Shown in pieces: positions 4,039 through 42,738 of a stretch of DNA of 64,000 nucleotides. A program made the position numbers and the translations under genes. Location: the NCBI RefSeq assembly GCF_963921235.1, contig NC_086108.1, forward strand, positions 20,832,001 through 20,896,000. Direction: 5' to 3'. Positions within the stretch are counted from its first letter, which is position 1. The number at the start of each line of letters is the position of its first letter. The notes below the pieces were generated by a model. It saw only the letters and a list, made by a program, of their open reading frames with translations. It did no database searches and had not been told where the DNA came from. The DNA is from Mobula hypostoma (Eukaryota).

Positions 4039-6744
4039 GAGCTGCCCTGGAAAAACAGGGGATGATGCTGGGGAGACACCAGAACCAGCTGTGGGAGTGG
4101 AGGGCAGTGGAGTCGCTTTCTGCCAATGTAGCCGATCTTGTGACCCAGATTCAGTCACTCCAGCCGTCCCAGAGCGCCCATCAACATTCTGCGACTGCAT
4201 CTTCCACCCCATCCTCTGCATTCCCACTTACTCCTCCCATCCAAAAGCCCTGTCTGCTTCCGCCAGAAAAGTACTCAGGTGAGCCCGGTACCTGCCACTC
4301 TTTTTTTTTTCAGTGCACCCTCATTTTTGAATTACAACCAACAATCTTTCCGACTGATTGAGCCAAGGTGGCCTACGTCATCACTCAACTGTCCGGTCGG
4401 GCGAGAAAATGGGGAACAGCCATCTGGGAGGCAGGCTCACCTTTCTGCATCAGTTTTCAGTTATTTTCTGAGATGAGTGAAGTGTTTGATCGCTCCAAAC
4501 ACGGGAGAGAGGCTGCCTGTGAAATGCTGCACATGCACCAGGGGCGCAGACCTGTGTCAGATTACGCCATTGAGTTCCAGACCCCAGCCATCTCCAGCAG
4601 TTGGAACTCGGAGGCACAGTACGACACCTTCCTGAACAGCCTCTCCGAAGACATCAAAGATGAGCTGATCACCAAGGACCTTCCCACCACCTTTGAAGCC
4701 CTGGTGGATTTGGCCATCCGTATTGAAGTTCGCCTTCAGCAGTGCCACAGAGGGAGGGGTTCCAGAGGGTCCTTGGGGGCACTGGGTGATTTCCAAGATC
4801 ATCAGTCTACATTGCCCTGTCGTTTGCCCCCATCTGCAATTCCCGTTCCAGAGCCTGAAGCTATGAAGGTTGACTGTACCCGCCTGACGCTGACCAAAGG
4901 AGAAAGGAGAATCAGCACCCATTCCTGTCTGTACTGTGGCCAACCAGACCACTTCATCCCCACCTGCCCGGTGAAAGCCAAGCGCTCACCAGTAGGACGA
5001 GGAGTACTGGTGAGCGTGACCCCTGTCCGGCCCTCCTCGACACCACTCACTCTCATACCTACTTCTCTGGCGTCGGGTGTCCAACGGCAAGCAGTCTCAG
5101 TCTTGGTTGATTCTAGTGCAGAGGGGTATTTTATCGATTCCGGCTTGGCTGGCCAGTGGGGATTAGTCATGTCTGCTCTCCAGTCACCATTTGTGGTCAA
5201 CATCTTGAATGGTCAGATACTGGCTAACATCACCCATGTCATGGCCCTGGTGAGTCAGTTTATCCGGCAACCATCATGAACAGTTAACCCTTTGTGTTAT
5301 TGACTCTCCTCAAGCTCCCATTGTCGTGGGCCATCCCTGGTTAGTTAAACACAACCCCCACATTGACTGGCTCAGTTGCAAGATTGTAGGCTGGAGCCCA
5401 TTCTGTCACTCCCACTGCCTCTGCCATGCTCAGATCCCCTTGTCTCCAAGCCCAGGACCTGCCCCCCCCAAAGGAATTTCTGGACCTTTGTGCCATCCCT
5501 CCTGAATACATGGATATCAAGACTGTGTTTAACAAGTCCCGGGCCACTTCCCTACGGCCTCATCATCCATATCATTATGCCACTGTCCTCTTGCCTGGCA
5601 CATCTCCCCCAAGGGGCCACCTGTATTCCCTGTCTGTACCTGAAATAAAAGTCATGAGTAAGTACATTCAAGAGTGTTTGGCTGCAGGCATCATCCGGCC
5701 ATCTTCCTTCTCTGCTGGTGCCAGTTTTTTCTTTGTTGAAAAGGACGGCTCCTTACATCCATGCATTGATTACCAGGGACTGAATGAAGTCACTGTTAAG
5801 AACCATTACCCTCTTCCGCTCATGACCTTGGCATGTGAACTACTGCAAGGCGCCTCAGTTTTCACCAAGCTCGATCTCTGTAACGACCATCACCTTGTTC
5901 GCATCCGCGAAGGGTATGAGTAGAAGACTGCCTTCAACACCACCTCAGGCCATTACGAGTATCTGGTCATGCCATTCGGTCTCACCAATATCCCCCGCCG
6001 TCTTCCAAGCCCTAGTAAATGACGTTCTCAGGGACATGCTGAACCGATTTGTTTTTGTGTATCTTGCTGACATTTTGGTTTTTTTTTTCTAAGTCCCTTG
6101 CTGAACACACAAGTCACGTCCGCAGAGTTCTCCAGTGCCTTCTGGAGAACCAGCTCTTTGTGAAGGCTGAGAAATGTGAATTTCATCACACACAATACTG
6201 TCTCCTTCCTGGGGTATGTAATTTCAGGTGGTTCCATTCAGATGGACCAACAGAAGGTCAAAGCAGTGGTCAAATGGCCCCAAACTTCGACTCGTCAGGA
6301 GTTGCAATGCTTCTTGGGCTTCACTAACTTCTATTGCCACTTTATCAGAAATTGCAATACACTGGCTGCACCACTCACTGCTCTTACCTCATCGGCTGTC
6401 AGATTCTCCTGGTCCCCTGCTGCTGAAAAAGCATTCTCTGACCTGAAGAAACATTTCACCTCTGCCCTCATCCTGATTCAACCCGACACCGACTGGCAAT
6501 TCATTGTGGATGCGTCTGACATTGGCATAGGAGCTGTTCTCTCTCAGCGCTCAGCCAAGGATGAGAATGCACACCCCTGCGCCGCCTTCTCTCGCCGCCT
6601 CACTCACACGGAGCGGAATTACAATGTCAGAAAGCAGGAACTGCTGGCTGTGAAGCCAGCTCTGGAGGAGTGGAGGCATTGGCTGGAGGGAGCCAAGGTG
6701 CCATTCTTAGTCTGGACTGATCACAAGAATCTGGAATATATCCA
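4039..6744 (+). pseudogene. Gypsy gag-pol remnant (gag, CCHC knuckle, aspartic protease, RT, RNase H)
   Basis: [54 protein letters not shown] (degenerate YLDD); [11 protein letters not shown]...WRHWLEG...TDHKNLEY. Multiple stops and frameshifts. Confidence 0.93.
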
Positions 6745-6866
6745 TGATGCGTTGCCTAAGTCTATAACCTGCAGTTTTGGAGCTTGCATAACTGCAAATC
6801 AGGCTTGTGGTCAGGAGGTGTGCACAGATGTTCATCCTCTCCTTTCATTTATTTTCTGTTTTCATT

Positions 6867-7000
6867 TAGAGATACAGCATGGTAATAGGCCATTCTGGCC
6901 TAACAAGCCCATGTCACCCTATTACATCCATATGACCTGCTAACTCAGAGCAGGAATGTAAGAGTAAACTGGAGCACCCACACAGTCATGGGGAGAACAT
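6867..7000 (-). mobile_element. SINE fragment (V-SINE/HE1-like) within the foreign segment inside the Gypsy
   Basis: AGAGATACAGCATGGTAATAGGCC...GGAGCACCCACACAGTCATGGGGAGAACA resembles the antisense of the SINE core and tail seen at 60715-61080. Confidence 0.55.
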
Positions 7001-13129: not shown

Positions 13130-13546
13130 TAAGGATGGGACTTTCAAAAAAAGTGAATCGGCCATGGGGAGTATTGTAGAGATGGGGGATACAGGGATAT
13201 AAGTATTTCTGGGAGAAAAGTTTGTGAACGCTTTTCAATTACCTTTTTCTGCATTACTCATAAATGTGATCTGATTTTCATCTGTCACAATAATAGACAA
13301 GCACCATCTGCCTAAACTAATAACACAAACATTGTACTTCTTGTCAATACTAAGCATATCATTTAAACAATCAGTCCAGGTTCAAAAAAGTATGTGAACC
13401 TCTGGGCAATGCTTTCCACAAAAAGTATTTGGAGTCAGGTTTCCAATCAATGAGATTAGACTGGAGACACACATTAAAGTTGCTGGTGAACACAGCAGGC
13501 CAGGCAGCATCTCTAGGAAGAGGTACAGTCGATCTCTCTATCAAAA

Positions 13547-15578
13547 TTCTTTGGCAAAGACTCTTCCACCCCCACCGATGACCCCTTCTCCCATCTTCAA
13601 CCCTCTTCTTCTTCGTGGACACCCCGCTCTGGTCTTCTGCCTGCTCTGGATCTCTTTATCGCTAACTGCCGACGGGACATCAACCGTCTCGACTTCACCG
13701 CACCTTGTTCCCATTCCAACCTCACTCCTTCGGAACGCTCTGCTCACCACTCCCTCCGCACTAATCCTAACCTTATTATTAAACCCGCCGATAAGGGGGG
13801 TGCCGTTGTAGTCTGGCGCACTGACCTCTACCTTGCCAAGGCACAGCGACAACTCGCGGATACCTCCTCTTATTTACCCCTCGATCGTGACCCCACTAAG
13901 GAGCACCAGGCCATTGTCTCCCACACCATCACTGACTTTATCCGCTCAGGGGATCTCCCATCCACTGCTACCAACCTTATAGTTCCCACACCTCGCACTT
14001 CCCGTTTCTACCTCCTACCCAAGATCCACAAACCTGCTTGTCCTGGCAGACCTATTGTCTCAGCTTGCTCCTGCCCCACCGAACTCGTTTCTGCATACCC
14101 CGACACGGTTTTATCCCCACTTGTTCAATCCCTTCCTACCTATGTTCGTGACACTTCTCACGCTCTTAAACTTTTCGATGATTTTAAGTTCCCTGGCCCC
14201 CACCGCTTTATTTTCACCGTGGATGTCCAGTCCCTATATATTTCCATCCCCCATCAGGAAGGTCTCAAAGCTCTCTGCTTCTTTTTGGATTCCAGACCTA
14301 ATCAGTTCCCCTCTACCACCACTCTGCTCCGTCTAGCGGAATTAGTCCTTACTCTTAATAATTTCTCCTTTGTCTCCTTCCACTTCCTCCAAACTAAAGG
14401 TGTAGCTATGGGCACCCGTATGGGTCCTAGCTATGCCTGTCTTTTTGTTGGCTTTGTGGAACAATCTATGTTCCGTGCCTATTCTGGTATCTGTCCCCCA
14501 CTTTTCCTTCACTACATCGACGACTGCATTGGCACTGCTTCCTGCACACATGCTGAGCTCGTTGACTTTATTAACTTTGCCTCCAACTTTCACCCTGCCC
14601 TCAAGTTTACCTGGTCCATTTCCAACACCTCCCTCCCCTTTCTAAATCTTTCTGTCTCTGTCTCTGGAGACAGCTTATCCACTGATGTCTACTATAAGCC
14701 TACTGACTCTCACAGCTATCTGGACTATTCCTCTTCTCACCCTGTCTCTTGCAAAAATGCCATCCCCTTCTCGCAATTCCTCCGTCTCCGCCGCATCTGC
14801 TCTCAGGCTGAGGCTTTTCATTCCAGGATGAGGGAGATGTCCTCCTTTTTTAAAGAAAGGGGCTTCCCTTCCTCCACTATCAACTCTGCTCTCAAACGCA
14901 TCTCCCCCATTTCACGTACATCTGCTCTCACTCCATCCTCCCACCACCCCACTAGGAATAGGGTTCCCCTGGTCCTCACCTACCACCCCACCAGCCTCTG
15001 GGTCCAAGATATTATTCTCCGTAACTTCCGCCACCTCCAATGGGATCCCACCACTAAGCACATCTTTCCCTTCCCCACCCCCAGCTTTCCGCAGGGATCG
15101 CTCCCTACGCGACTCCCTTGTCCATTCGTCCCCCCCATCCCTCTCCACTGATCTCCCTCCTGGTACTTATCCTTGTAAGCGGAACAAGTGCTACACATGC
15201 CCTTACACTTCCTCCCTTACCACCATTCAGGGCCCCAAACAGTCCGTCCAGGTGAGGCGACACTTCATCTGTGAGTCGGCTGGGGTGATATACTGCGTCT
15301 GGTGCTCCCGATGTGGCCTTCTATATATTGGCGAGACCCGACGCAGACTGGGAGACCGCTTTGCTGAACACCTACGCTCTGTCCGCCAGAGAAAGCAGGA
15401 TCTCCCAGTGGTCACACATTTTAATTCCACATCCCATTCCCATTCTGACATGTCTATCCACGGCCTCCTCTACTGTAAAGATGAAGCCACACTTAGGTTG
15501 GAGGAACAACACCTCATATTCCGTCTGGGTAGCCTCCAACCTGATGGCATGAACATCGACTTCTCTAACTTCCGCTAA
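13547..15578 (+). pseudogene. Penelope RT-GIY-YIG ORF, 5'-truncated, with a frameshift near 15070
   Basis: KPADKGG, YLLPKIHK, GVAMGT, YIDD, FL(D/N)L, CKRNKCYTC, VIYC..C..CGLLYIGET.R.L..RF.EH. Confidence 0.92.
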
Positions 15579-21512: not shown

Positions 21513-24500
21513 ATATAACCATATAACAATTACAGCACGGAAACAGGCCATCTCGGCCCTTCTAGTCCGTGCTGAACACATGCTCTCAGCCCATAACCCT
21601 CCATTCCATTCCTGTCCATATAGCTGTCCAATTTAACCTTAAATGACAACATCCAACCTGCCTCAACCACTTCTGCTGGACGCTCGTTCCACACAGCTAC
21701 GACTCTCTGAGTAAAGAAGTTCCCCTTCATGTTACCCCTAAACTTTTGCCCTTTAACTCTCAACTCATGTCCTCGTGTTTGAATCTCCCCCACTTTCAAT
21801 GGAAAATGCCTATCCACGTCAACTCTATCTATCCCCCTCATAATTTTAAATACCTCTTAAAAAGTCCCCCATCAACCTTCTACGCTCCAAAGAATAAAGA
21901 CCCAACTTGTTCAACCTTTCTCTGTAACTTAGGAGATGAAACGCAGCTAACATTCTAATAAACTTTCTCTGTACTCCCTCAATTTTGTTGACATTTTTCC
22001 TATAATTTGGTGACCAGAACTGTACACAATACTCCAAATTTAGCCTTACCAATGCCTTATACAATTTCAACATTACATCCCAACTCCTATACTCAATGCT
22101 CTGATTTATAAAGGCCAGCATACCAAAAGCTTTCTTCACCACCCTATCCACATGACAGTCCACCTTCAGGAAACTATACACCATTATTCCTAGATCCCTC
22201 TGTTCTACTGCATTCTTCAATGCCCTACCATTTACCATGTATGTCCTATTTTGATTAGTCCTACCAAAATGTAGCACCTCACATTTATCAGCATTAAATT
22301 TCATCTGCCATCTTTCAGCCCACTCTTCTAACTGGCCTAAATCTCTCTGCAAGCTTTGAAATGACAAATAACATTAGACCCAGTACAAATCCCCGAGGCA
22401 CACCACTAGTCACCGGCCTCCAATCTGACACACAGTTATCCACCACTACTCTCTGACGTCTCCCATCCAGCCACTGCTGAATCCATTTTACTACTTCAAT
22501 ATTAATACCTAACAATTGAACCTTCCTAACTAACCTTCCTTGTCAAAGGCCTTACTGAAGTCCATATAGATAACATCCACCACTTTACCCTCGTCAACTT
22601 TCTCAGTAACCTCTTCTAAAAATTCAAAAGGATTTGTCAATCATGACTTTCCACGCACAAATCCATGTTGACTGTTCTCAATCAGACCCTGTCTATCCAG
22701 ATAATTATACAGTTCCTAATCAGACCCTGTCTGTCCAGATAATTATATATACCATCTCTAAGAATACTTTCCAACAATTTACCCACCACTGACGTCAAAC
22801 TCACAGGTCAATAACTGCTAGGTTTACTCTTAGAACCCTTTTTAAACAATGGAACAACATCAGCAATACGCCAATCAGCCGGATCCCCGTTTCTAATGAC
22901 ATTTGAAATATTTCTGTCAGAGCCCCTGCTATTTCCACACTAACTTCCCTCAAGGTCCTAGGGAATATCCTGTCAGGACCTGGAGACTTACCCACTTTTA
23001 TATTCCTTAGAAGCGCCAGTACTTCCTCTTCTTTAATCATCATAGTTTCCATAACTACCCTTCTTGTTTCCCTTACCTTGCACAATTCAATATCCTTCTC
23101 CTTAGTGAATACCGAAGAAAAGAAATTGTTCAAAATCTCCCCCATCTCTTTTGGCTCTGCACATAGCCATCCACTCTGATTCTCTAAGGGACCAATTTTA
23201 TCCCTCACTATCCTTTTGCTATTTATATAACTATAAAAACCCTTTGGATTTATTTTCACCTTACTTGCCAAAGCCAACCTCATATCTTCTTTTCGCTTTT
23301 CTAATTTCTTTAAGATTCTTTTTACATTCCTTATATTCCTCGAGCACCTCATTTACTCCAAGCTGCCTATATTTATTGTAGATCTCTCTCTTTTTCTGAA
23401 TCAAGTTTCCAATATCCCTTGAAAACCATGGCTCTCTCAAACTTTTAACGTTTCCTTTCAACCAACAGGGACATAAAGATTCTGTACCCTCAAAATTTCA
23501 CCTTTAAATGACCTCCATTTCTCTATTACATCTTTCTCATAAAACAAATTGTCCCAATTCACTCCTTCTAAATCCTTTCGCATCTCCTCAAAGTTAGCCT
23601 TTCTCCAATCAAAAATCTCAACCCTGGTTCCAGTCCTTTCCTTCTCCATAATTATATTGAAACTATAATTATGATCACTGGACCCGAAGTGTTCCCCAAC
23701 ACATACCTCTGTCACCTGACCTATCTCATTCCCTAACAGGAGATCCAACACTGCCCCTTCTCTAGCAGGTACCTCTATGTATTGCTGCAAAAAACTATCC
23801 TGCACACATTTTACAAACTCCAAACCATCCAGCCCTTTTACAGAATGAGTTTCCCAGTCTATGTTGGAAAATTAAAATCTCCCACAATCACAACCTTGTG
23901 CTTACCACAAATATCTGCTATCTCCTTACAAATTTGCTCCTCCAATTCTTGCTCCCCATTAGGTGGTCTATAATACCCCTTATAAGAGTTACTACACCTT
24001 TCCCATTTCTCAATTCCACCCAAATAGCCTCCCTAGACGAGTCCTCTAATCTATCCTGCCAAAGCACCGCTGTAGTATTTTCTCTGACAAGCAATGCAGC
24101 TCCCCCTCTTGCCCTTCCAATTCTATCACACCTGAAGCTACAAAATCCAGGAATATTTAGTTGCCAATCACACCCCTCCTGCAACCATGTTTCACTAACA
24201 GCTAAAACATCATATTTCCAGGTATCAATCCATGCTCTAAGCTCATCCACCTTTCTTGCAATGCTCCTAGCATTAAAATAGATGCATTTAAGAAACTCTC
24301 CACCTCTTATTCTCTGTTTATCCCTGATGGTGCAAACAACTTTGTTATCTTTTTCTTCCTTCTTCCCTATATCTTCGGTCTGAGTGCTCCCGTTCTCTGT
24401 CCCCTGCCTATCCTCCCTCACACACTGTCTACTAGCTTTCTCTATTTGTGAACTAACCTCCTCTCTCCTCATCTCTTCAATTTGATTCCCACCCCCCAAC

Positions 24501-25850
24501 CATTCTAGTTTAAAGTCTCCCCAGTAGCCTTCACAAATCGCCCCGCCAAAATATTGGTCCCCCTAGGATTCAAGTGCAACCTGTCCTTTTTGTACAGGTC
24601 ACAGCTGCGCCAAAAGAGGTCCCAATGATCAAGAAACTTGAATCCCTGCCCTCTGCTCCAATCCCTCAGCAACGCATTTGTCCTCCACCTCATTGCATTC
24701 CTACTCTCACTGTCGTGTGGCACAGGCAGTAATCCCGAGATTACTACCTTTGTGGTCCTTCTTCTCAACTCCCTTCCTAACTCCCTATATTCTCCTTTCA
24801 GGATCTCTTCCCTTTTCCTACCTATGTCATTGGTACCTGTATGTACCACAACCTCTGGCTCCTCACCCTCCTACTTCAGGATATCTTGGATGCGATCAGA
24901 AACATCCCAGACCCTGGCACCAGGGAGGCAAACTACCATCTGGGTCTCCTGACTGCGTCCACAGAATTGCCTATCTGACCCCCTATCGAGTCCCCTATTA
25001 CTACAGCCCTCCTCTTCCTTTCCCTACCCTTCTGAGCTACAGGGCCGGACTCTGTGCCAGAGGCACAGCCACTGTTGCTTCCCCCAGTTAGGCTGTCCCC
25101 CCACAACAGTACTCAAACAGGAGTACTTATTGTTAAGGGGCATAGCCACTGGGTACTCTCTAGTACCTGATACTTCCCCTTCCCCCTCCTAACTGTGACC
25201 CACTTGTCTGCCTCCCATGGCCCTGGTGTGACCACCTGCCTGTAACTCCTCACTCTCCCTGAACAGATGAATGTCATCAAGCTGCAGTTCCAGTTCCCTA
25301 GTACGGTCCTTTAGGAGCTGCAGTTCGGTGCAACTGACGCAGATGTGGACATCTGGGAGGCTGCCCTCACACTCATACTTCCCCCTTTCCTCAAATAACA
25401 GGGAAAATTGAAAACCAAACCTACTTTGCCTCATCCGTTTCTGCCTAAGCCCGTTGAGCCAAAGCCCTTAAGCATTCACTCTGCTCCCGGCTCGCTCCGC
25501 AGCCCGCAAAACGACGCTGCCCGCTGTATACGGCTGTGTTCCTTTTAAATCTTCTGTACTTCACTGCCCGACGTCACACGCCTGCACAGTCCTGCCTCTC
25601 ATAACTCCGATGAGAAAAAGAAAAAGTCAAAATGGCTTCTACTGCACTCCCACTCCGATTCTCAGACTTCCTTCTCCGAATTAAACCCGAATCAGGATTT
25701 CTGACCTTTTAAATCTTCTGCGCTTCACTGCCCAGCGTCACACACCTGTGCAGTCCCGCCTCTCTTAACTCCGATGAGAAAAAGAAAAAATCAAAATGGC
25801 TTCCGCCGCACTCCTGCTCCGATTCTCAGACTTCCTTCTCTGAATCTCTT
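21513..25850 (-). mobile_element. Near full-length CR1 LINE (5' UTR, ORF1 esterase, ORF2 APE-RT), defective
   Basis: ORF1 C..C zinc finger and VH.GTNDIG..LHLN. ORF2 YFNARS, ETWL, GSSDHN, KSPGPD, FNADKC, LEYCVQFW. (TTATATGG) tail at ~21515. Confidence 0.93.
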
Positions 25851-26444
25851 GCTCCAACAGAATGCCAATATTCTCAACTGTCTGGAAAAATTTGACTAGG
25901 GTCGATCAAAAGACACAACAGACCACAGATGCTGGAATCTCAAGCAACAAGCAATCTGCTAGACGAACACAGCAGGTCAAGCAGCAACAACCCACTAGGC
26001 TCCTCCGGCAGATAGTTTTTGGCTCTGGAGAAGTTATGGATTTCAGTAATAACTACAGCCTTCCCATGTATAACTGGAGGCAATTTTGCTTGCCCAATAT
26101 TGGATGTGAAACAAGTAGCATTACAAATAAATAGCAGTTGAAAGCAGTAGTAAGAAATAAAAATGCACATTGTCAGCATTTATTTGGAAACAAATATATT
26201 TTCAAATGATGGGCATTGTGCAACAGGTAAATAGGAGAGGGTCAAGGAGAAAGTGAAGAATAATCCTTGGGGAAAATTGCACAGATGACAATATTGCCTA
26301 CTCAGTTGTTCCAACACATTCTCTTTGAATGTATGTTAGCCCTCTATAGCAGCTCGCTTGCCATAATCTTGAGTTACAATTAGAACAATGTTATCTTTGC
26401 ACTCAAATGCAAATCACTTCTCTACAATCCAAGAGAACTATATT

Positions 26445-27169
26445 TGTCAAGTCAAACTAGAGTTTCTAGAAAGTATTGGGACCTAGAGGCAAAAGAAAAT
26501 AAAATTTAAAAGTAATAGCAAGAATCCACTGATAGACCGGATGGAACCCGCTGCCTGGGTGCTGCTTTTGCCCGGAACATCGGGAGGACCCGGCAGCATC
26601 ACAGCGGCAGTCCGGGAACAGCGTTGGAATCTGCGGTAAGATGCTGAACTTTAAATAATTTTAGAGACTGTTTCATGGAAAAGAGTACTGCTGTCACTGC
26701 GTTTTGGGTCAGTGCGAGCTTCGCGTCACGGGGATCATCGCACGCAGGTGCTTCTGGGAAATGGCACGAGGTTTAAGAAGAGCTCAGGAACCTTTGGGAA
26801 CGCACGCCCGGTTTGAAAACATAACAGTCGATTAGGGAGCGGAGAGGTGCAGGTCGAATCCGTCTACAAAGTCCGCAGAGGTACCCAGTTTTTTCACCTA
26901 ATAACTAATAACTTATAACTTATGACTAGTGTCCAAGCAACTACTGTCTAGTGAATAATGTCTAATGACTAGCGACCAATGTCCAAGAGCTAATGGTTGA
27001 TGGAACTAATCAAACTGCCGCACTTGCGAAAAATAAAATGAGGAAAAAGGAAAAGTTGTTTGGTCATTGAGTCGAATCTAGTTAAAAAACCTTCGCGTAG
27101 ATGCATTCAATCCCTTTCAAGTGGGGAAGCTGCGCATGTTCAAAGAACAAAAAGAAGTCCAACTTGACA
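26445..27169 (+). repeat. BEL 5' LTR
   Basis: Direct repeat of 33944-34675; Inr-like CCAGTTT at 26885 and AATAAA at 27032. Confidence 0.95.
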
Positions 27170-27182
27170 GTGAAAAAACTGG
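27170..27182 (+). promoter_or_regulatory. Putative self-priming primer-binding site (GTGAAAAAACTGG)
   Basis: Exact reverse complement of LTR 26885-26897; no TGG-initiated tRNA-type PBS abuts the LTR. Confidence 0.7.
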
Positions 27183-28823
27183 TTGACCAGAAAACTGGAG
27201 AACCAGGAAACAGCAGGAGCAATAACCTTGAATCCTGAAAAGGAAGAAAATCAAGTTAAAACAACATCAAAGCATCATTAAAAAGTTGTACTTACCTTCT
27301 CACCTGCGAACAGCCTGCAGAGGAAATCAAACATGGCTGATCAAGCTATTGGGAAATCAGTTGATCAACTCAAGGTAGAGCGAACAGCAAAAAGATTATT
27401 TTCTAGTCTGGTCAACAGCATTACCAGGACCTATGAAGACATGTCTGAAGAGGAGCTCAGAGTCAGTTTCAATAAACTCACAATACAAGCCAAGAAAGTC
27501 ATGGAAGCCAATGATGATGTGGAGGCCGGATTCACTACAGAAATGGAGGCGAAGCTGAACACAGAGGAAGTAGCTGTGTTGACTGAACAGCAAAAAGCCA
27601 ACCTGGCAAAGACGGCAAATGAGTGTGAGTTGAAACTAAAGGAGGTCATAAGCCTAATCCTGGAGACTCTTCGGACCAACTTTGGGAATGTTGAATTGTT
27701 CACAGCACTACAAGCAGCAGAGGATGAATGTGAAAGCGTCACTGCTATACAATCCGATGGCAACCAGGAGGCGTATGAGTTCATGCTTAACCACCTGCAA
27801 GGACTGGTAAAGACAGCAAAGAAGGTGCATGGTTGGTGGAAACGATGGATCCCGCCAGGGGATCAGAAGGACCTTCAGAGTCACCTAAAGGGGCTCAAAC
27901 TCCACATCCCCAAGTTGGTTTCCAAGAAGGCCCACTTCATATGGGCAAAGAGAAAGGAGGATGCTGAAAGACTAACACCCACGGCATTGGGCTTTTCCTC
28001 CAATTTTCCCACGCCAGCCATCAGATTGAAACCGATGGCCCTTCCCAAGTTTACTGGCAGCAAACGTGATTTTCACAGGTGGAGAAAGGACTGGGAAGCA
28101 CTCCAGAGGCAGGGAGAGCCGACCGGTTCAAGAGAGGTGAAAAAGGTTCAACTACTGGACAGTCTTGACGACAAAATCATAAGAAACCTTCATCACTACA
28201 TATAACACTGTAGATGACATTTTCCATGTACTAGAAAACCGCTATGGAAATCAAACGTGCATTGCTATTGAAATAGTGGAAGAGTTACAGAAAATGCCAG
28301 CTGTCAGAAATCATCAGTCACAGAAAATAGTGGAATTTATTCAAGCTGTGGAGAAGGCACTTCAAGACTTGAGTGACCTTGGACAAATGGATGCTATCAA
28401 AAATCCGCTGGTGACAAAATCAATTGAAAGTAAACTTCCTGAAACTCTCAAAAGGGAATGGCTGGTCTATGTCACTGACAGGAGAAATCCAGATAATTGG
28501 TTTGACAGTCTCTTGGAATTCCCCAAAGGGCAAGAGAGCATATATGAGCAGCTCGAGCAACTGAGAGATGAACAGCCAAGTAGAAGAGAAACCAGGGCTG
28601 AGCCAAGACATGCCAGAACCAAGTCTACCAAGTCAGGCAACAATCATGTAGGGTGTGTAGTCTGCGGTGAAGGAAAGCACAAAAGGAAGCTCTAGTTTTG
28701 CAAACAGTTTCAAACGCTAAAGCTACCAGAGAAAAAGGCTGCAGTAAGAAAGTTGGGAGCATGCAAGAGGTGTCTCGAGGTTCATGATGACAGTTCATAC
28801 TGCAAACCCACCTATCCATGTAA

Positions 28824-29321
28824 AACGCAAACACGAGGAAATCTGCAGATGCTGGAAATTCAAGCAACACACATCGAAGTTGCTGGTAAACACAGCAGGC
28901 CAGGCAGCATCTCTAGGAAGAGGTACAGTCGACGTTTTGGGCCGAGACCCTTCGTCAGGACTGACTGAAGGAAGAGCTAGTAAGAGATTTGAAAGTGGGA
29001 GGGGGAGGGGGAGATCCAAAATGATAGGAGAAGACCGGAGGGGGAGGGATGGAGCCAAGAGCTGGACAGTTGATTGGCAAAAGGGATATTAGAGGATCAT
29101 GGGACAGGAGGCCTAGGGATGTTGACGGCCTAGGAGGGCCATGAACATTGACTTCTCAAACTTCCGCTAATGCCCCACCTCACCCTCGTACCCATCTGTT
29201 ATTTATTTATATACACATTCTTTTTCTCTCTCTCTTTTTTTCCCTCTGTCCCTCTCACTATACCCCTTGCCCATCCTCTGGGTTTTCCCCCCCTCCCCTT
29301 TTTCCTTCTCCCTGGGCCTCC
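28824..29321 (-). mobile_element. Penelope 3' fragment with a 5' inversion, inserted in the BEL element
   Basis: Minus arm 28824-29117 and plus arm 29140-29321 match 15548-15994. Hammerhead motif at 28926-28963 (-). Confidence 0.9.
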
Positions 29322-31690
29322 CACCAAACAAACAGGATGGCATCAAGCTTCAGGAGTCAGGTACTTCAAGCACCAACCGGGACTTCCTAGAGTGGTGGAC
29401 GTGGGATAGTATTGGCGCAGCATGCAAGCCAAAATGTGGGGGTTGCCACTGCGGAAACTGCCAGCCAGGTGGCAAAGGAATGACTCTTGTTGAGGAGAGG
29501 GAACTTGGAAGTTGTAAGAAGAGGCCTCACCTATGTCACACGTGACTGCCACAGCAAGGAACCACATTGGCACGCCAGATATCCTTGGTTAGAAGATCCA
29601 GCTTCCCTGCCAAACAATAAAAGAACAGTGGAGGCTACATTTCTCAGGACGGAAAAGCACCTAGCCAAAGAATCTGAGTGGAAAGCTGCCTAACTGCTCA
29701 AGTGCATGACATGGTCCATCAAAGGGTTGCAATGAAATTATCCAAAGACACGGTCATCAACTGGAATGGGCCAGTCTGGTACATGAGTCACCTTATTGCT
29801 CCAAATCCACACTCTGTCACGACCCCAGTGAGACTCGTGTGGAACAGCAGCCAAAAGTTCAGAGGTGTGAGCTTGAACGACCTGCTAATGAAAGGGCCAG
29901 ATGTCCTCAACCAGATTCGTACTGTCCTACTCAGATTCAGAGGTGGAGTATACGCTGCTCTGGGTGACATAAAAAAGATGTACAATTCGGTTTGGTTGGA
30001 AGACCGAGAAGTGCACCTGCATAGATTCCTCTGGCGAGACTTCAAGGACGAGGAGCTGGGGGAAGGTGCAATCACGAGAGTGAACATTGGAGATAAACCA
30101 GCAGTGCGCATTGCGCAGCTCGCAATGCGTGAAACTGCCAACTTCCCTCCTTTCACCCACCTCAAAGAGGAGTGGCAGGTACTCCAACACGATAGCTACG
30201 TTGATGACATTCTCACATCCCACAACAACCTTGATCAGCTGAAATCCATCACAGCAAATTTGGAACAGATCCTGCAGGCCGGAGGTTTCGAGCTCAAGCC
30301 TTGGGTCTTTTCTGGGCAAAGTGGGAGGAAAGGGTGCAATGACAAGCTGGAGAAGTCCAAGGCAGAAACCATGGTCGCCAAACCAAATGCGTGATGATGA
30401 CAACAAGGCACTTGGCCTGGGCTACATAGTATAAGAGGACAAGCTCCATGTCATGATTGCAATCAATTTGTCGAAGAGAAAGAAAAAAATGAGACTTGGC
30501 CAAGACTTTCTACAAGAGCAAATCAAAGAACAGACGCCAAACCCCATGACACGAAGAGAACTGCTCAGCCAAGTATCAGGGCTGTATGACCCAGTTGACC
30601 TGGCAACTCCTGCTAAGCAGAAGGGAGCTATTCTGGTACGAAGGATGTTCCAAGAGGCAAAGGGCGAAAAGTGTCCAGTCAAAGACACATGGGACATAGC
30701 ACTCTCAGATGGCCTCAGAGAGGATGCAATTAAGCTCTTCAAGGAGTACGTTCAACTTGGCAAGGTAAAGTTCACCAGAGCACTGACTCCCCCATGCTTC
30801 ACTGAGGAACCCTGGGCAATCACGTTCTCTGGTGGAAGCGAGCACGCCTATGGAGCAGTGATGTATCTAAGGTGGAACTCAGACCAGGGCTCAGTCGTCA
30901 GGCTGGTGGAATCTAAAGCCAAATTAACTCCCTTGGATCACAAAGGTGATGCTGTCAAAGCAGAGATGTGTGGAGCAGTGTTTGCCTCATGCCTGAGAAA
31001 GTACTTTGAGCTGCATAGCCAAATCCAAGTTGGGAGGTGGTACCATTTCACTGATAGCCAGACAGTCTTTGGTGCAGTACAGTGGGAAAGCTATGGCTAT
31101 TAAACATTCTTTGCAAATAGGATCGGAGAGATTCAAAACAGCACAGGGATCCAGAACTGGCGGTGGATTCCTGATCTGCAAAATATTGCTGATGTAATCA
31201 CCATAGGAGCCAGCCCTCAAGACCTGGATGAAGACTCAGAGTGGCAAAATGGGCCAAAATTTTTGAGTTTCCCAATGAATGAGTGGCCAATGAAATCAGC
31301 CAAAGAACTAGCAGCCTCTGTCAGGGGAAGCATCAACAAGTTGCAAAAGGAGGCATTTGTTGCTGCTTTGACAAGGGCTAAGGCAAAGAAACAAGAACCA
31401 GCACAAAAACAGCACCAGGTCAAAACAGAACAATGGAGACTGCCTGCAGCATCAGCCATCCAAAGCCTTGTGGACATCAAGCGGTTCAGTGTTCTAACTT
31501 GACTAGTCAAAACAGCTGCATGGATCTGAAGAGCAGCAAAAAAATTCATTGGACAAAATCAAGCCGTGGACAGTCCAAAGTGGGAAGCAGTTTCTTTGAT
31601 AGGAGTCATCTCAGCAAGGGAATGAGAAGATGCTCTAAGAGACATTTTTCTAGCAGCACAAGAGGGCATAACCTTCCCAAGCACCACTAC

Positions 31691-32500
31691 CTAGTGCGCA
31701 TGCGCCGGTTGTGCATGCAGCCTGATACAGCCGTTCCAAACTATTCTTTTACTTCCTTCTTCTTACTTTTTAATTTACGTTATTTTTGTTTTTTTTTCTC
31801 ACGGTAACACGTCGAAGCTGCACCCTCTCTAACATGCTGGTAGAGAGAGTTTTATTTGGGTTTTCTTTAGCGTTGGAAATGGTTACATCCCAACACGCGG
31901 GACTGAAGCAAGGTGTCATTGTGTATTTCACGGACCAGCAAAGACCGGTCAGCTTAGCTAACAGAGCGGTGGACACCCCTGCTGAAATCCGGAGGAAAAC
32001 ACACAGAGGGGGATCACAAAGCCGAGGAAAGAGGGCCGGGTCGAGACAACAGAGTCTTTTGGAGAAGAGGAGTTCGGTGGGTAATACCGTTCTGGCTGAC
32101 CGGAAGTACACCGAGAGCGGTAAGCGTAAAGGAGTTTCATGCTTACTGCTCTGGTTAACAACGGATGGTGCAATCCGGAGTATATTACGATCGAGGAACG
32201 TGTTTGCAGACTGGATACCGAACTTTTTACTGTTGGACTTCGGCCACGTTCCACCGTGATACAACACGGGAGGTCGTTCCTGCCTGTGGCCATCGAACGT
32301 GCGGCTCCTCCCGTGAAGGGTCAGACACCCTGAGCCAATAGACTGGTCCGGGACTTATTTTCCATCTGGCATAGTTTGCATTTTGTTGTTTGATTGTTGG
32401 GGTTTTTTGTAGTGCTATATTTACGCTCTATTCTTGGTTGGTGCGGCTATAACAAAACCAAATTTCCCTCAGGATTAATAAAGTATATCTATCTATCTAT
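31691..32500 (+). mobile_element. Internally deleted Rex1-type LINE inserted in BEL pol
   Basis: RRKTHRG, ADR..ESGKRKG and LVNN.WCNP..ITI.ERVC..D.ELF.VGLRP (endonuclease) fused to RSFLPVAI (C-terminus). (ATCT)n tail; TSD CTAC. Confidence 0.8.
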
Positions 32501-33943
32501 CTACAGACAGGCTGGTAGTCTATAAAAACCAAGATTCTGGGCTGTTGGTTTGCAGTGGCCGAGTGCAAATCTTCAAAGAAGATCAAGTTGGTGTCCCCAT
32601 CTTGCCCTATGATACCTGGGTGTCCACACTGTTAACTCGGAAGGCCCACAATGGTAGTCATGACAGAGTGGCCGGAACCTTGCTCAAGATGAGAAGAAAG
32701 GCATGGGTCATAAGGGGAAGGAAAATTGCCCTAAAAGTTGTCGATAGCTGCATGCTCTTGAAGGAAGGCAAAAGCAAGGAAATGTCAACAAGTAATGGGT
32801 GACTTGCAGCTAGAAAGAAATGAACCTACTGCACTGTTCCAGTTCACAACAGTGGACCTCTTCGGACCCTACCAAGTAAAAGATGACGTCAAGAAAAGAG
32901 TAACACTGAAAGTCTGGGGAGCGGTCTTTTGTTGCATGGCCAGCAGAGCCATCCACACAGAGTTGGTAAACACCCTATCAACTGAAGGATTCCTGATGGC
33001 CTATCAAAGGTTCAGCGCAATCAGGGGACATCCAAGAAAGATCTGGTCAAATCCAGGCACCAATTTCATTGGAGAAACACCAGTCTTGGAAGAGCTGTAC
33101 AGAATTTTGGACGACCTGAACGAAGCAGCCTTGCAGGAGACCACAGCAAAAAAATGGAACGGAGTGGATGTGGAAAATCCATCCGCCTGATTCTCCACAC
33201 AGGAACGGTGCTGCAGAAGCCGCTGTACGCATTGTAAAGAGAGCGTTCCAGAGTCTTGGGAAGGAGTCTGGGCTCAGTTACAGTGAGTTCCAGACAACTC
33301 TTCACATATCAGCCAACCTTGCCAATGAGCGCCCAATTGGCGCCAGGGTACAGAGCCGGGAAGACTGTATTCAGTATGTCACACCCAACACTTTTCTACT
33401 CGGTCAAGCATCTCAAAGCGGGGATTTCAAAACCTTTGACTTTTCCAGTTACCCCTAAGAAAGACTCCGAGCAATGCAGTCAGAGGTGACCAAGTTCTGG
33501 AGGTGCTGGAGCCAACTCGCTGGTCCTAATTTGTTTGTCAGGAGCAAGTGGCATACTGCACAGAGAAACGTCACTGTTGGGGACATCGTCTGGTTAAGCA
33601 ACCAAAATGCACTGAGAGGACATTTCAAGCTTGGCAGAGTCCTCCAGACAGCAAAGGCATCGTGAGGGACGTCACCGTCAGGACCTTCCCAAGCTACAGT
33701 GTTCCTGTGACAAAAGCTCTGAAAATAACAACAAGACATCCAATCGCTGATAGGAAAAGAGACAGGATCCAAGCCACCATCCTTCACAGGGACGTCATGC
33801 GGCCGGTTGTCTTACTACCTGTTGAGGAACAGATGGAAAGTCAAGTCAACAATACATCGTAAGAACACCGAATTGGGACCACCAAGTTTGCCTTTGAAGC
33901 TGGCGATCTCCCCAGTGTTTCCATGGGAAGATCGAGTGGGGGG

Positions 33944-34675
33944 TGCCAAGTCAAACTAGAGTTTCTAGAAAGTATCGGGACCTAGAGGCAAAAGAAAATA
34001 AAATTTAAAAGTAATAGCAAGAATCCACTGATAGACCGGATGGAACCTGCTGCTTGAGTGCTGCTTCTGCCCGGAACATCGGGAGGACCCGGCAGCATCA
34101 CAGTGGCAGTCCGGGAACAGCGTTGGAATCTGCGGTAAGATGCTGAACTTTAAATAATTTTAGAGACTGTTTCATGGAACAGAATACTGCTGTCACTGCG
34201 TTTTGGGTCAGCACGAGCTTTGCATCACGGGGATCATCGCGCGCAGTCGCTTCTGGGAAATAGCGCGAGGTTTAAGAAGAGCTCAGGAACCTTCGGGAAC
34301 GCACGCCCGGTTTGAAAACATAACGGTCGATTAGGGAGCGGAGAGGTGCAGGTTGAATTCGTCTACAATGTCCGCAGGGGTAGCCAGTTTTTTCACCTAA
34401 TAACTAGTGACTTATGACTAGTGTCTAAGCGACTAGTGTCTAGTGACTAATTCTAATGTCTAATGACTAGTGACTAATGCCTAATAGCTAATGGTTGATG
34501 GAACTATTGAAATTATCAAACTGCCGCACTTGCGAAAAATAAAAGGAGGTAAAAGGAAAAGTTGTTTGGTTATTGAGTGGAATCTAGTTAAAAAACCTTC
34601 AGGTAGACGCATTCAATCCCCTTCAAGTGGGGAAGCTGCACATGTTCAAAGAACAAAAAGAAATCCGACTTGACA
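33944..34675 (+). repeat. BEL 3' LTR
   Basis: Direct repeat of 26445-27169, followed by TSD ATATT. Confidence 0.95.
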
Positions 34676-34935
34676 ATATTGCCTGAACTAAGTAATGCCA
34701 CTTTTTATTTTTTGTATGCAAAGTATAATATTCCCAGTCCTAACAGAGCATATTTCTATGAAATGAAAGATAAAATAAATTTAATTTTGATCTGAATTCA
34801 TTGCAAAATAAGGGCAATCACTAACTAAATGTGTAAAAGTCAATCTTCAAGTCTTATCTGTGAAAATAATCAGGAAGAATCCAAATTTATAGAAGTATAT
34901 CTGTACAGAACACCTGTAGACTTTAACAGCATATA

Positions 34936-36132
34936 CACTTAGTGGCCACTTTATTCGGTACATCCTGTATCTAATAAAGTGGCCACTAAGGGCATATCCA
35001 TTGTCTTCTGCTGCTGTAGCTCATCCACCTCAAGGTTTGACGTGTTGTGTGTTCAGAGATGCTCTTGTGCACACCATCTTTGTATTGCATGGTTACTTGA
35101 GTTACCGTTGCTGTCAGTCTGAACCAGTCTAGCCATTATACTCTGAGCTCTCTTATTAACAAGGCATTTTCACCCACAGAACTGCTGATCACTGGATTTA
35201 TTTTGTAGCATCTCTGTAAACTCTAGTGATTGTTATACATGAAAATCTGAGATCTCCAGTTTCTGAGATACTCAAACTGCTCCATCTGGCACCAATAATT
35301 ATTCCACAGTCAAAGTCACTTAGGTCACAGCAGCACGCGTGGCCACTTCGGTGGTGATGTCTGATAACTGTCAAGTAGGGGACCGTGCACAATTCTGATT
35401 TGATGGAGACAGATGTGAAGGAACATCTGGAAAACTTCTGAAATGCCCGCTTCGCTGCCACTGCTACTGTGTGGTAACCAGAATCTCCAGAGCTGAAGCC
35501 CCTGAAATCCTCAGCTTTGTGTATTTCAGCGGCTGGGGAGAGGTCGAAGGCGCTCGGCAGAGGATGGCACTCAGGAGGCTGTATTGGAGAGGCTGGTCGG
35601 AAGCTCGGAGTTTTCAGACGGATGGACTCAGTGTCGGCTGGGGTCGGCTGCTTCCAAGGTATCGGCAAGTTGACAGTGCCTAGAGGTTTATGCCAGGGAG
35701 TTTCTCCGTTTTGCCGCCTGCTATCAGGGACTCCGGAGTCAATCGACTTGGGACTTAGAGACTTTTTACTGTGCCCATGGTCTGTTCTTCATCAAATTAT
35801 GGTATTGCTTTGCACTGCTGTAACTATATGTTATAATTATGTGGTTCTAGCAGTGTTAGTCTTTGGTCTGTCCTGTTTTCTGTGACATCACTCCGGAGAA
35901 ACATTGTATCATTTCTTAATGCATGTATGCATTTCTAAATGACAATAAAAGAGGACCAAGTGTTCTCATAATCTAATCTAACATTTCTTCCCATTCTGTT
36001 GTTTAGTCTGAACAATAACATAACTTCTTGACCATGTCTGCATGCTTTTATGCACTCCGCCACATGTTTGGCTGATTGGATATGTACATTAACAAAATGT
36101 ACAGGTGTACCTAATAAAGTGGTCACTGAGTG
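34936..36132. mobile_element. Tc1/mariner-type MITE (same family as 3491-9884, opposite orientation)
   Basis: TA-CACTTAGTGGCCACTTTATT ... AATAAAGTGGTCACTGAGTG-TA. Confidence 0.88.
35330..35980 (+). mobile_element. SINE-like non-autonomous retroposon inside the MITE
   Basis: Interrupts the MITE consensus; ends AATGACAATAAA...(AATCT)n; possible 3-bp TSD ACA. Confidence 0.7.
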
Positions 36133-36363
36133 TATACAAGTATTTGTGCATATAATCAATAAAAGGTTCCATGAAATAACATTTAAGATACATTTTCTGT
36201 ATTCCAGAATAGTGATAACCAACCACTAACCTTAAAAATGAATTCTGTTTATCCTCTGTCCACAGTTGACTATTTCCAATATTCCGATTCCATTTAGTAC
36301 ATACTTTAAAATCTCTAGTTAGTATATTCTGTGTTGATCATAAATATGATTCCGAACACTTAC

Positions 36364-40999: not shown

Positions 41000-42738
41000 T
41001 GAGGGTGAATTTATTATGGGGAACAAGGAAATGGCAGACGAGTTGAACAGGTACTTTGGATCTGTCTTCTCTAGGGAAGACACAAACCATCTCCCAGATA
41101 TAATAGTGGCCAAAGGAACTAGGGTAATGGATGAACTGAAGGAAATTTATATTAGGCAGAAAATGGTGTTGGAGAGGCTAGTGGGTCTGAAGGTTGATAA
41201 GTCCCTGGGACCTGATGGCCTGCATCCCAGGGTACTTAAGGAGGTGGCTTTAGAAATCGTTGACACATTAATAATCATTTTCCAATTTTCTATAAATTCA
41301 GGATCAGTTCCTGTGGATTGCAGGGTGGCTAATGTTGTCCCACTTTTCATGAAAGGAGGGAGAGAGAAAACAGGGAATTAGAGACCAGTTAGCCTGACGT
41401 CAGTGGTGGGAAAGATGCTGGAGTCAATTATAAAAGATGAAATTACAACACATTTGGATGGCAGTAACAGGATAGGTCCGAGTCAGCATGGACTTACGAA
41501 GGGGAAATCGTGCTTGAGTAATCTTCTGGAATTTTTTGAGGATGTAACTATGAAAATGGATAAGGGAGAGCCAGTGGATGTAGTGTACCTGGACTTTCAG
41601 AAAGCCTTTGATAAAACCCCACACAGGAGATTAGTGGGCAAAATTAGGGCACATGGTATTGGGGGCAGACTACTGACATGGATTGAAAATTGGCTGGCTG
41701 ACAGGAATACAAAGAGGGGCAATTAACGGGTCCCTTTCGGAATGGCAAGTGGTGACCAGTGGGGTACCACAGGGTTCAGTGCTGGGACCGCAGCTATTTA
41801 CAATATACATTAATGATTTAGATGAAGGGATTAAAAGTAATATTAGCAAATTTGCAGATGACACAAAGATGAGAATGCAGGGTGACTTGGACAAGCTGGG
41901 TGAGTGGGTGGATGCATGGCAGATGCAGTTTAATGTGGATAAATGTGAGGCTATCCACTTTGGTGGTAAGAACGGGAAGGCAGATTATTATCTAAATGGA
42001 GTCAAGTTAGGAAAAGGGGAAGTACGACCAGATCTAGGTGTTCTTGTACATCAGTCACTGAAAGCAAGCCTGCAGGTACAGCAAGCAGTGAAGAAAGCTA
42101 ATGGCATGCTGGCCTTCATAACAAGGGGAATTGAGTATAGGAGCAAAGAGGTCCTTCTGCAGCTGTACAGGGCCCTGGTGAGACCACACCTGGAGTACTG
42201 TGTGCAGTTTTGGTCTCCAAATTTGAGGAAGGACATTCTTGCTATTAAGGGAGTGCAGCGTAGGTTCACAAGGTTAATTCCCAGGATGGCGGGACTGTCA
42301 TATGCTGAAAGATTGGAGCAACTGGACTTGTATACACTGGAATTTAGAAGGATGAGAGGGGATCTGATTGAAACATATAAGATTATTAAGGGATTGGACA
42401 CGCTGCAGGCAGGAAGCATGTTCCCACTGATGGGCGAGTCCAGAACCAGAAGCCACAGTTTAAGAATAAGGGGTAGGCCATTTAAAACGGAGTTGAGGAA
42501 AAACTTTTTCACCCAGAGAGTGGTGTATATATATGGAATGCTCTGCCCCAGAAGGCAGTGGAGGCCAAGTCCCTGGATGTTTTCAAGAAAGAGATGGATA
42601 GAGCTCTTAAAGATTGCGCAATCAAAGGTCATGGGGATAAGGCAGGAACTGGATACTGATTGTGGATGATCAGCCATGATCACAGTGAATGGCAGAGCTG
42701 GCTCATAGGGCCGAATGGCCTACTCCTGCACCTATTGT
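41000..42738 (+). mobile_element. 5'-truncated CR1 LINE inside L1 ORF2
   Basis: GPDGLHPRVLKE, YLDFQKAFD, SGVPQGSVLGP, KFADDTK, RPHLEYCVQFWSP. L1 ORF2 resumes after the insertion. Confidence 0.93.

Follow-up and report, generated by a model that had tools for sequence, protein, structure and literature searches.

A BEL/Pao retrotransposon family of Mobula hypostoma that probably primed reverse transcription with RNA from its own LTR

The window analysed here is a stretch of 64,000 nucleotides from the genome of Mobula hypostoma (assembly GCF_963921235.1, contig NC_086108.1, positions 20,832,001 to 20,896,000), and all coordinates refer to it. A decayed BEL/Pao retrotransposon occupies positions 26445-34675 and is flanked by a target-site duplication (Table 1). 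Its LTRs have TG...CA ends and short terminal inverted repeats, and a purine tract precedes position 33944. The 5ˊ and 3ˊ LTRs are identical at 671 of 718 aligned bases, with transitions making up 36 of the 47 mismatches. Pfam matches occur in the order DUF1759, RVT_1 (below its cut-off), Peptidase_A17, Integrase_H2C2 (weak), and DUF5641. The initial annotation placed the element in BEL/Pao, and this assignment holds because the domains lie in BEL order between the LTRs and tblastn matches to BEL polyproteins agree. The LTR size (within 0.2-1.2 kb), the TG...CA ends, the target-site duplication, and the polypurine tract are likewise those of a BEL/Pao element.

The window Gag shares 35-67% identity with 45 longer proteins, and those that are named come nearly all from fish. 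One of these relatives is a Takifugu protein whose cluster contains AAN15112.1 of Takifugu rubripes, the nearest named protein, which we take to be Suzu. Identity to protein P0119 is 45-71% over the matched segments. Two stretches of the element lack a BEL polyprotein match, namely 28830-29363 and approximately 31683-32499, the latter being an insertion. The former stands where a match to the protease region would be expected, and has short repeats in common with 25926-25986.

Table 1. Positions of element features in the window, and post-LTR sites of the families compared
Feature	Position	Strand	Remarks
Target-site duplication, 5ˊ copy	26440..26444	+	ATATT (5 bp)
5ˊ LTR	26445..27169	+	725 nt, TG...CA
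Candidate splice-donor-like site	26636..26641	+	GTAAGA; kept in 22 of 27 window-family copies with the site parsed
Candidate promoter element, TATA-like	26772..26780	+	TTTAAGAAG; about 113 nt 5ˊ of the primer motif; in 26 of 27 parsed copies
Candidate self-primer	26885..26897	+	CCAGTTTTTTCAC; contiguous in DNA; no pyrimidine-tract acceptor before or inside
Polyadenylation signal	27032..27037	+	AATAAA
Putative primer-binding site (PBS)	27170..27182	+	GTGAAAAAACTGG; adjoins the terminal CA of the LTR
Small hairpin 3ˊ of the PBS	27187..27198	+	CCAG-AAAA-CTGG; CCRG-GAAA-CTGG in most family copies
Candidate acceptor-like tract	27293..27313	+	pyrimidine-rich, ends CAG, 20 nt 5ˊ of the gag ATG
gag-pol, decayed	27333..33832	+	DUF1759, RT, RNase H/Peptidase_A17, integrase, DUF5641; stops and frameshifts
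Polypurine tract	33934..33943	+	adjoins the 3ˊ LTR
3ˊ LTR	33944..34675	+	732 nt
Primer motif, 3ˊ LTR copy	34384..34396	+	identical
Target-site duplication, 3ˊ copy	34676..34680	+	
Post-LTR site, window			GTGAAAAAACT
Post-LTR site, L095 and L091			GTTGAAAACCA
Post-LTR site, L092			GTTGATAACCA
Post-LTR site, F2			GTGAAAACGTG
Post-LTR site, F3			GTGAAAAGGCG
Post-LTR site, L126			GTAAAATATCT
Post-LTR site, L127			GTCGACAACGT
Post-LTR site, L129			GTAAATTCACA

The most distinctive feature of the element is the sequence that follows its 5ˊ LTR. As the initial annotation had reported, positions 27170-27182 are the exact reverse complement of LTR positions 26885-26897, with the match ending at 13 nt, and the same 13-mer is unchanged at 34384-34396 in the 3ˊ LTR. 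Among 5000 dinucleotide shuffles of the window LTR, none gave a 13-nt match at offset 0, where the longest was 10 nt. Matches of at least 13 nt appeared in 1/5000 shuffles at offsets 0-5 and in 2/5000 at offsets 0-20. Other observations of the annotation were borne out as well. By sequence, CCAGTTT fits the initiator consensus YYANWYY with its A at 26887, and AATAAA is present at 27032. No TGG adjoins the LTR in the window or in 28 other loci of the same family. Two small hairpins had also been proposed, and the second of these requires correction to CCAG-AAAA-CTGG at 27187-27198, with a four-base loop, in place of CCAG-AAA-CTGG at 27186-27196. The element lacks the 18-nt PBS of ICTV type, which is the complement of a tRNA-Arg or tRNA-Gly 3ˊ end. 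This missing tRNA PBS is the point of the finding, and is no ground for removing the element from BEL/Pao, where its protein phylogeny places it.

Copies of the window's family (F1) in the M. hypostoma genome show about 90% identity to the copy in the window. Nearly all start with GTGAAAAA after the LTR, and TGG is found there in 0 of 29 loci. All 13 pairs are kept in only 10 of 35 parsed copies, and covariation between the lengths of the T run and the A run is not significant within the family (3/3/3/12, p 0.29). Conservation of the primer is 0.92 versus 0.78 and 0.65 in its flanks, a level that 34% of 13-nt LTR windows equal. The small number of fully paired copies, the non-significant covariation of run lengths, and the undistinguished conservation of the primer all follow from the age of the F1 copies, and F1 alone is therefore no proof of selection.

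A comparison across families is more informative. The initial annotation had proposed covariation in related families as a check, and the complement is indeed kept with changed letters: in nine of the 11 families for which an LTR and a post-LTR site are available, the site matches the family's own LTR at 10-11 of 11 positions, and the letters differ among families (Table 1). The pass level was at most 2 of 200 shuffles; the acceptor filter was relaxed after the first pass, and the null was recomputed under the relaxed filter. With the first, strict filter, seven of nine families were at or below 2/400 shuffled sites, while L127 did not pass and L126 reached a score of only 9, on a wrong acceptor. 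The two families that fail the relaxed test are F5, a decayed copy with a match of 9 of 11 (67/200 shuffles), and L125, whose LTR is incomplete (130/200 shuffles). When sites were swapped among families, the family's own PBS came first in seven of 11 rows, shared first place with a near-identical one in two, and was not the best in two. These swap and shuffle counts leave out L128, L130, family F4, and coding-only contigs, which have no PBS, and because the families are few and related, the counts should not be read as independent probabilities. In eight of the nine passing families, the first post-LTR base is where the complement starts (offset 3 in L129), and in all nine it begins with GT. 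None of the 11 families has TGG where the LTR ends.

The relatives used in this comparison come from several sources. Eleven metagenome loci were collected, of which only L091, L092, and L095 had an LTR end and PBS. These three are contigs of the window's branch, with 55-61% protein identity to the search query. Their LTRs are followed by GTTGAAAACC (L091 and L095) or GTTGATAACC (L092), in each case with an exact 10-nt complement within the same LTR, and L092 shows a compensatory A-T swap in site and complement. Eight genome-contig loci were also collected, of which L125, L126, L127, and L129 had an LTR end and PBS, L128 and L130 had only a 3ˊ LTR, and L131 and L132 had neither. L125-L130 are complete or almost complete BEL/Pao elements whose contigs were assigned to bacterial MAGs, and these contigs are most likely contamination with animal host DNA. 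A search of viral contigs found no relatives. The M. hypostoma genome holds at least five BEL/Pao families (F1-F5), with TGG at the LTR end in none of the four whose 5ˊ LTR was seen; no 5ˊ LTR was obtained for F4 (L208, L209, and L216).

In L091, L092, and L095, the motif is preceded by a T-rich tract and an AG, and for this reason the other BEL families of the M. hypostoma genome were examined. In seven of the nine passing families (F2, F3, L092, L095, L126, L127, and L129), the best match to the post-LTR site spans the junction of a GT-AG intron inside the LTR, such that joining the two exons completes the complement. The F2 intron is 205-217 nt long, and its PBS match is 8 nt unspliced versus 11-12 nt across the junction. 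In L126, L127, and L129, which come from other hosts, 11, 10, and 11 of 11 positions match across the junction versus 8 of 11 unspliced. Exon 1 supplies 6-7 primer bases in these three elements and only 2-3 in L092 and L095.

Genomic LTRs from which exactly this intron is absent are present in F2 (L122 and L123; 205 nt, with two pattern hits against one control hit). With equally exact boundaries, they also occur in F3 (L204 and L206; 225 nt) and F5 (L214 and L217; 342 nt). These intron-less LTRs fix the junctions independently of the PBS. Both LTRs are intron-less in L206, L214, and L217, which indicates that intron-free elements were made and integrated. Most of the F2 and F3 elements seen keep the intron in both LTRs. 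The intron-less F3 copies L204 and L206 are mutually closest (90% versus 80-87%) and have variants in common. The intron was probably lost once in F3, with subsequent replication of the intron-free sublineage. For F3, the expected post-LTR site was written down from 3ˊ LTRs only, before nine stretches were fetched. The predicted site is exact in one of five 5ˊ LTRs, and differs by one substitution in two and by two substitutions in two. The F5 copies (L214, L215, and L217) have a second 6-nt complement, between GAAAGC in exon 1 and GCTTTC 3ˊ of the PBS. This complement could lengthen the duplex upstream past a bulge, which would require an internal primer; it was noticed post hoc and in one family.

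No GT-AG LTR intron that completes the complement is evident in the window's own family. Of the 17 nt that precede the AG within the window motif, 2 are T and 7 are pyrimidines, and by sequence, splicing from the sole strong donor would cut the match from 13 to 10. Among 59 loci, no F1 copy has a donor-to-primer deletion, and no intron-less variant was found. Genome-wide pattern searches for an F1 copy with the 26636 donor joined to the primer returned 1 hit, and those for a joint with the pre-gag acceptor returned 4; none of these hits is family-derived. Four sets of presumed-RNA contigs, compared with 26300-28300, run through both the donor-like site and the motif and yielded six joints, none of them GT..AG; this comparison has low power, and the contigs cannot show transcript starts. 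In an RNase H tree, F1 falls in a clade (SH-aLRT 100) with the intron-bearing L092 and L095, and intron-bearing families are also found in the two other clades. This tree was built by a quick method, is midpoint-rooted, and leaves aside the LTR states of the nearest proteins (P0001-P0045). The simplest reading of the sequences is that the intron was lost in the ancestry of F1. The window family is best read as the intron-free state of a junction-primer system, with the two parts of the primer already united at the DNA level. Its intron-free state suggests that such elements can likely do without the intron after the junction has become fixed in their DNA. A hypothetical splice from 26636-26641 to 27293-27313 would excise both primer and PBS and leave an mRNA suited only to translation. 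Neither a joint nor a processed copy that uses this donor and acceptor was found in the contigs and genome patterns.

The complement, its covariation, the fit at the junctions, the intron-less LTRs, and the predicted F3 site together make self-priming well supported as an inference. From these sequence comparisons, we estimate a probability of about 75% that the window family primed reverse transcription with a piece of RNA derived from its own LTR. In its initial form, this proposal is partly supported: a self-complement in place of the tRNA PBS holds up under covariation across families, but the LTR-intron junction of most relatives was missed. The primer presumably lies inside the transcript and not at its 5ˊ end, because the 2-3 primer bases supplied by exon 1 of L092 and L095, the closest relatives with an LTR, argue for an internal primer rather than for a first exon of this length. 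In the proposed mechanism, the transcript would fold such that the motif at 26885-26897 pairs with the PBS at 27170-27182, and cleavage of the RNA would follow directly behind the last C of the motif, by RNase H if the process resembles that of Tf1. The freed 3ˊ end would then start minus-strand DNA at the terminal CA of the LTR. Extension through U5 and R would produce a strong-stop DNA of approximately 272 nt, and the sequence upstream of the cut would be regained from the 3ˊ LTR after strand transfer. Under this mechanism, an unspliced 3ˊ copy would pass the LTR intron on, and splicing of that copy would remove it from both LTRs.

A broader reading is also favoured, if a little less strongly. 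Several major vertebrate and marine-invertebrate branches of BEL/Pao probably dispense with tRNA and use a primer of their own RNA that the spliceosome joins from two LTR exons, so that spliced RNA alone is licensed for reverse transcription. Lineages could then shed the intron, fix the united primer in their DNA and keep replicating, and the window family would be one of them.

Equilibrium folding models support the primer-PBS helix only in short folds. The fold of 26885-27200 has a z of -3.3. Mean pairing between primer and PBS is 0.87-0.99 if the fold ends at 27200, and 0.05-0.84 if it ends at 27260 or 27335. The helix is not formed in the L091 fold. The U5 stem of the Tf1 'pretzel' has a probability of 0.00-0.34 in the RNA of the window, whose sequence is decayed, and appears in the minimum-energy folds of L092 and L095.

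The alternative that survives best, though we consider it unlikely, is that transcription starts at 26885-26887 and that the mRNA begins with the primer as its first 11-13 nt, as in Tf1; in intron-bearing relatives, the primer would then combine a micro first exon with the beginning of exon 2. The YYANWYY sequence at 26885 is consistent with such a start, and most families have a match that ends at 11 nt or close to it, the limit that a 5ˊ end would set. Moreover, the helix of the intron-less F2 copy L122 forms (about 0.75) only if the fold starts at the primer, and falls to 0.00-0.05 with 30 or 80 nt of upstream sequence. However, the same start would mean a first exon of 2-3 nt in L092 and L095. 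The window family has no TATA-like box 25-30 nt upstream, and carries a conserved TTTAAG 113 nt upstream. Folds of the window RNA that start at 26887 show pairing lowered to 0.23-0.31 when they are longer. An initiator consensus is weak evidence, and a start at the motif is doubtful.

It is rather improbable that priming occurs in trans, whereby a short LTR transcript of another copy or a solo LTR (spliced if it has an intron) primes a genomic RNA that stays unspliced and passes the intron on. The presence of the intron in both LTRs of most F2 and F3 elements needs an unspliced 3ˊ LTR in the template, and priming in trans removes the need to splice one LTR copy while sparing the other. A cap-proximal intron that is spliced better than its 3ˊ twin would presumably give the same pattern, however, and the window family has no intron to tell cis from trans.

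A very unlikely reading is that the duplex is real but serves a structural role (packaging, dimerization, or translation control) or is a by-product of template switching, with some other RNA or protein acting as the primer. Sequence comparison cannot show priming, and the folding is not robust. Nevertheless, the complement sits at the first post-LTR base in eight of nine families and always begins with GT, which is where the 3ˊ end of a primer must lie, and no other primer site is present.

Least likely of all is that a host tRNA or tRNA fragment uses a site that is offset or bulged (TGG at +11) for priming and that the LTR complement serves another purpose, although Belpaoviridae are described by the ICTV as tRNA-primed (PMC8742986). 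Many F1 copies, of which L002 was tested, match the 3ˊ part of tRNA-Glu(CUC) over 10 nt at +15 to +24, just after TGGT. However, this tRNA was picked post hoc, and the match skips the four bases next to the tRNA 3ˊ end, is broken in the window copy, has no counterpart in other families, and overlaps a hairpin that explains its letters. Priming 10 nt from the LTR end would presumably also not yield the LTR end that is observed. Against the host genes for tRNA-Lys(UUU) and tRNA-Glu(CUC) only, the longest match to the window site is 5 nt. These genes are not a full tRNA set: an Rfam search scored 63 candidates, and the 24 loci scanned were all tRNA-Lys. An RNA complementary to the first ten bases of the site needs a run of six U nucleotides, which is not expected in a tRNA made by Pol III. 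The tRNA-Glu(CUC) match of the L002 type might be due to chance, to the letters of the hairpin, or to a vestige of a tRNA PBS.

Self-priming from the LTR has been shown for Tf1, where the complement is about 11 nt and the primer is freed by RNase H cleavage. The window element resembles Tf1, Tf2, Tj1, and Tf1/sushi elements, as described in two reports (PMC4600332, PMC10085805), in that it has no tRNA PBS and carries a post-LTR site complementary to its own LTR. In the same reports, the Tf1/sushi primer is the mRNA's 5ˊ end and is held in a three-duplex 'pretzel' (PMC4600332, PMC10085805). Compensatory change across families (9/11) is a further Tf1-like property of the site. In contrast to Tf1/sushi elements, which are chromoviruses of Ty3/Gypsy, the proteins of this element are BEL/Pao by Pfam and by their homologues, the flanking duplexes are unsupported by folding of the window RNA, and the BEL relatives complete their primer across an LTR intron. 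In other words, the element works like Tf1 in the source of its primer and is not a member of Tf1/sushi.

Self-priming has also been predicted in plants for the Copia TAR lineage (Houba and Osr-1) and for Gypsy Tcn1, by a rule under which the LTR is followed, at a distance of 0-5 nt, by a complement no shorter than 10 nt (PMC6317226). By this rule, the window element would be classed as self-priming. The Copia TAR and Tcn1 elements are plant Copia or chromovirus elements, and the available text describes no intron junction for them (PMC6317226). With the Copia TAR predictions, the statement of the initial annotation that self-priming is known only from Ty3/Gypsy is incomplete (PMC6317226).

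The Belpaoviridae profile includes an 18-nt PBS for tRNA-Arg or tRNA-Gly (PMC8742986). The window element resembles members of this family (Semotivirus) in the set and order of its domains, LTR length, genome size, and polypurine tract, and departs from the profile in having no TGG where the LTR ends, as do all the other families of the 11 compared. The literature searched, whose scope excluded Repbase and GyDB entries and most subscription papers, contained no account of BEL/Pao self-priming or of a BEL/Pao junction primer. Two of the reports (PMC3118150, PMC554778) make no mention of a PBS, primer binding, or tRNA. If the proposed reading is true, tRNA-independent priming would extend to a third LTR superfamily, and the ICTV description of Belpaoviridae would need correcting. 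Splicing that assembles a primer would connect host RNA processing with reverse transcription in a new way, and would provide a testable reason for the introns in these LTRs. Control by tRNA fragments would not reach such elements, and they would be missed by LTR-finding programs that require a tRNA PBS.

Several other mobile elements are present in the 64-kb window. Gypsy-type fragments (Retrotrans_gag and RT_RNaseH) are located at 4362-6943. The region at 13517-15578 carries a 544-aa frame with no Pfam hit followed by a weak GIY-YIG match, and is possibly a Penelope-like element. LINE-type endonuclease and RT fragments are found at 23918-24562, 41677-42669, and 62127-62804. Just 3ˊ of the 3ˊ LTR, inverted repeats of 31-32 nt at 34931-34997 and 36106-36136 resemble the ends of DNA transposons.
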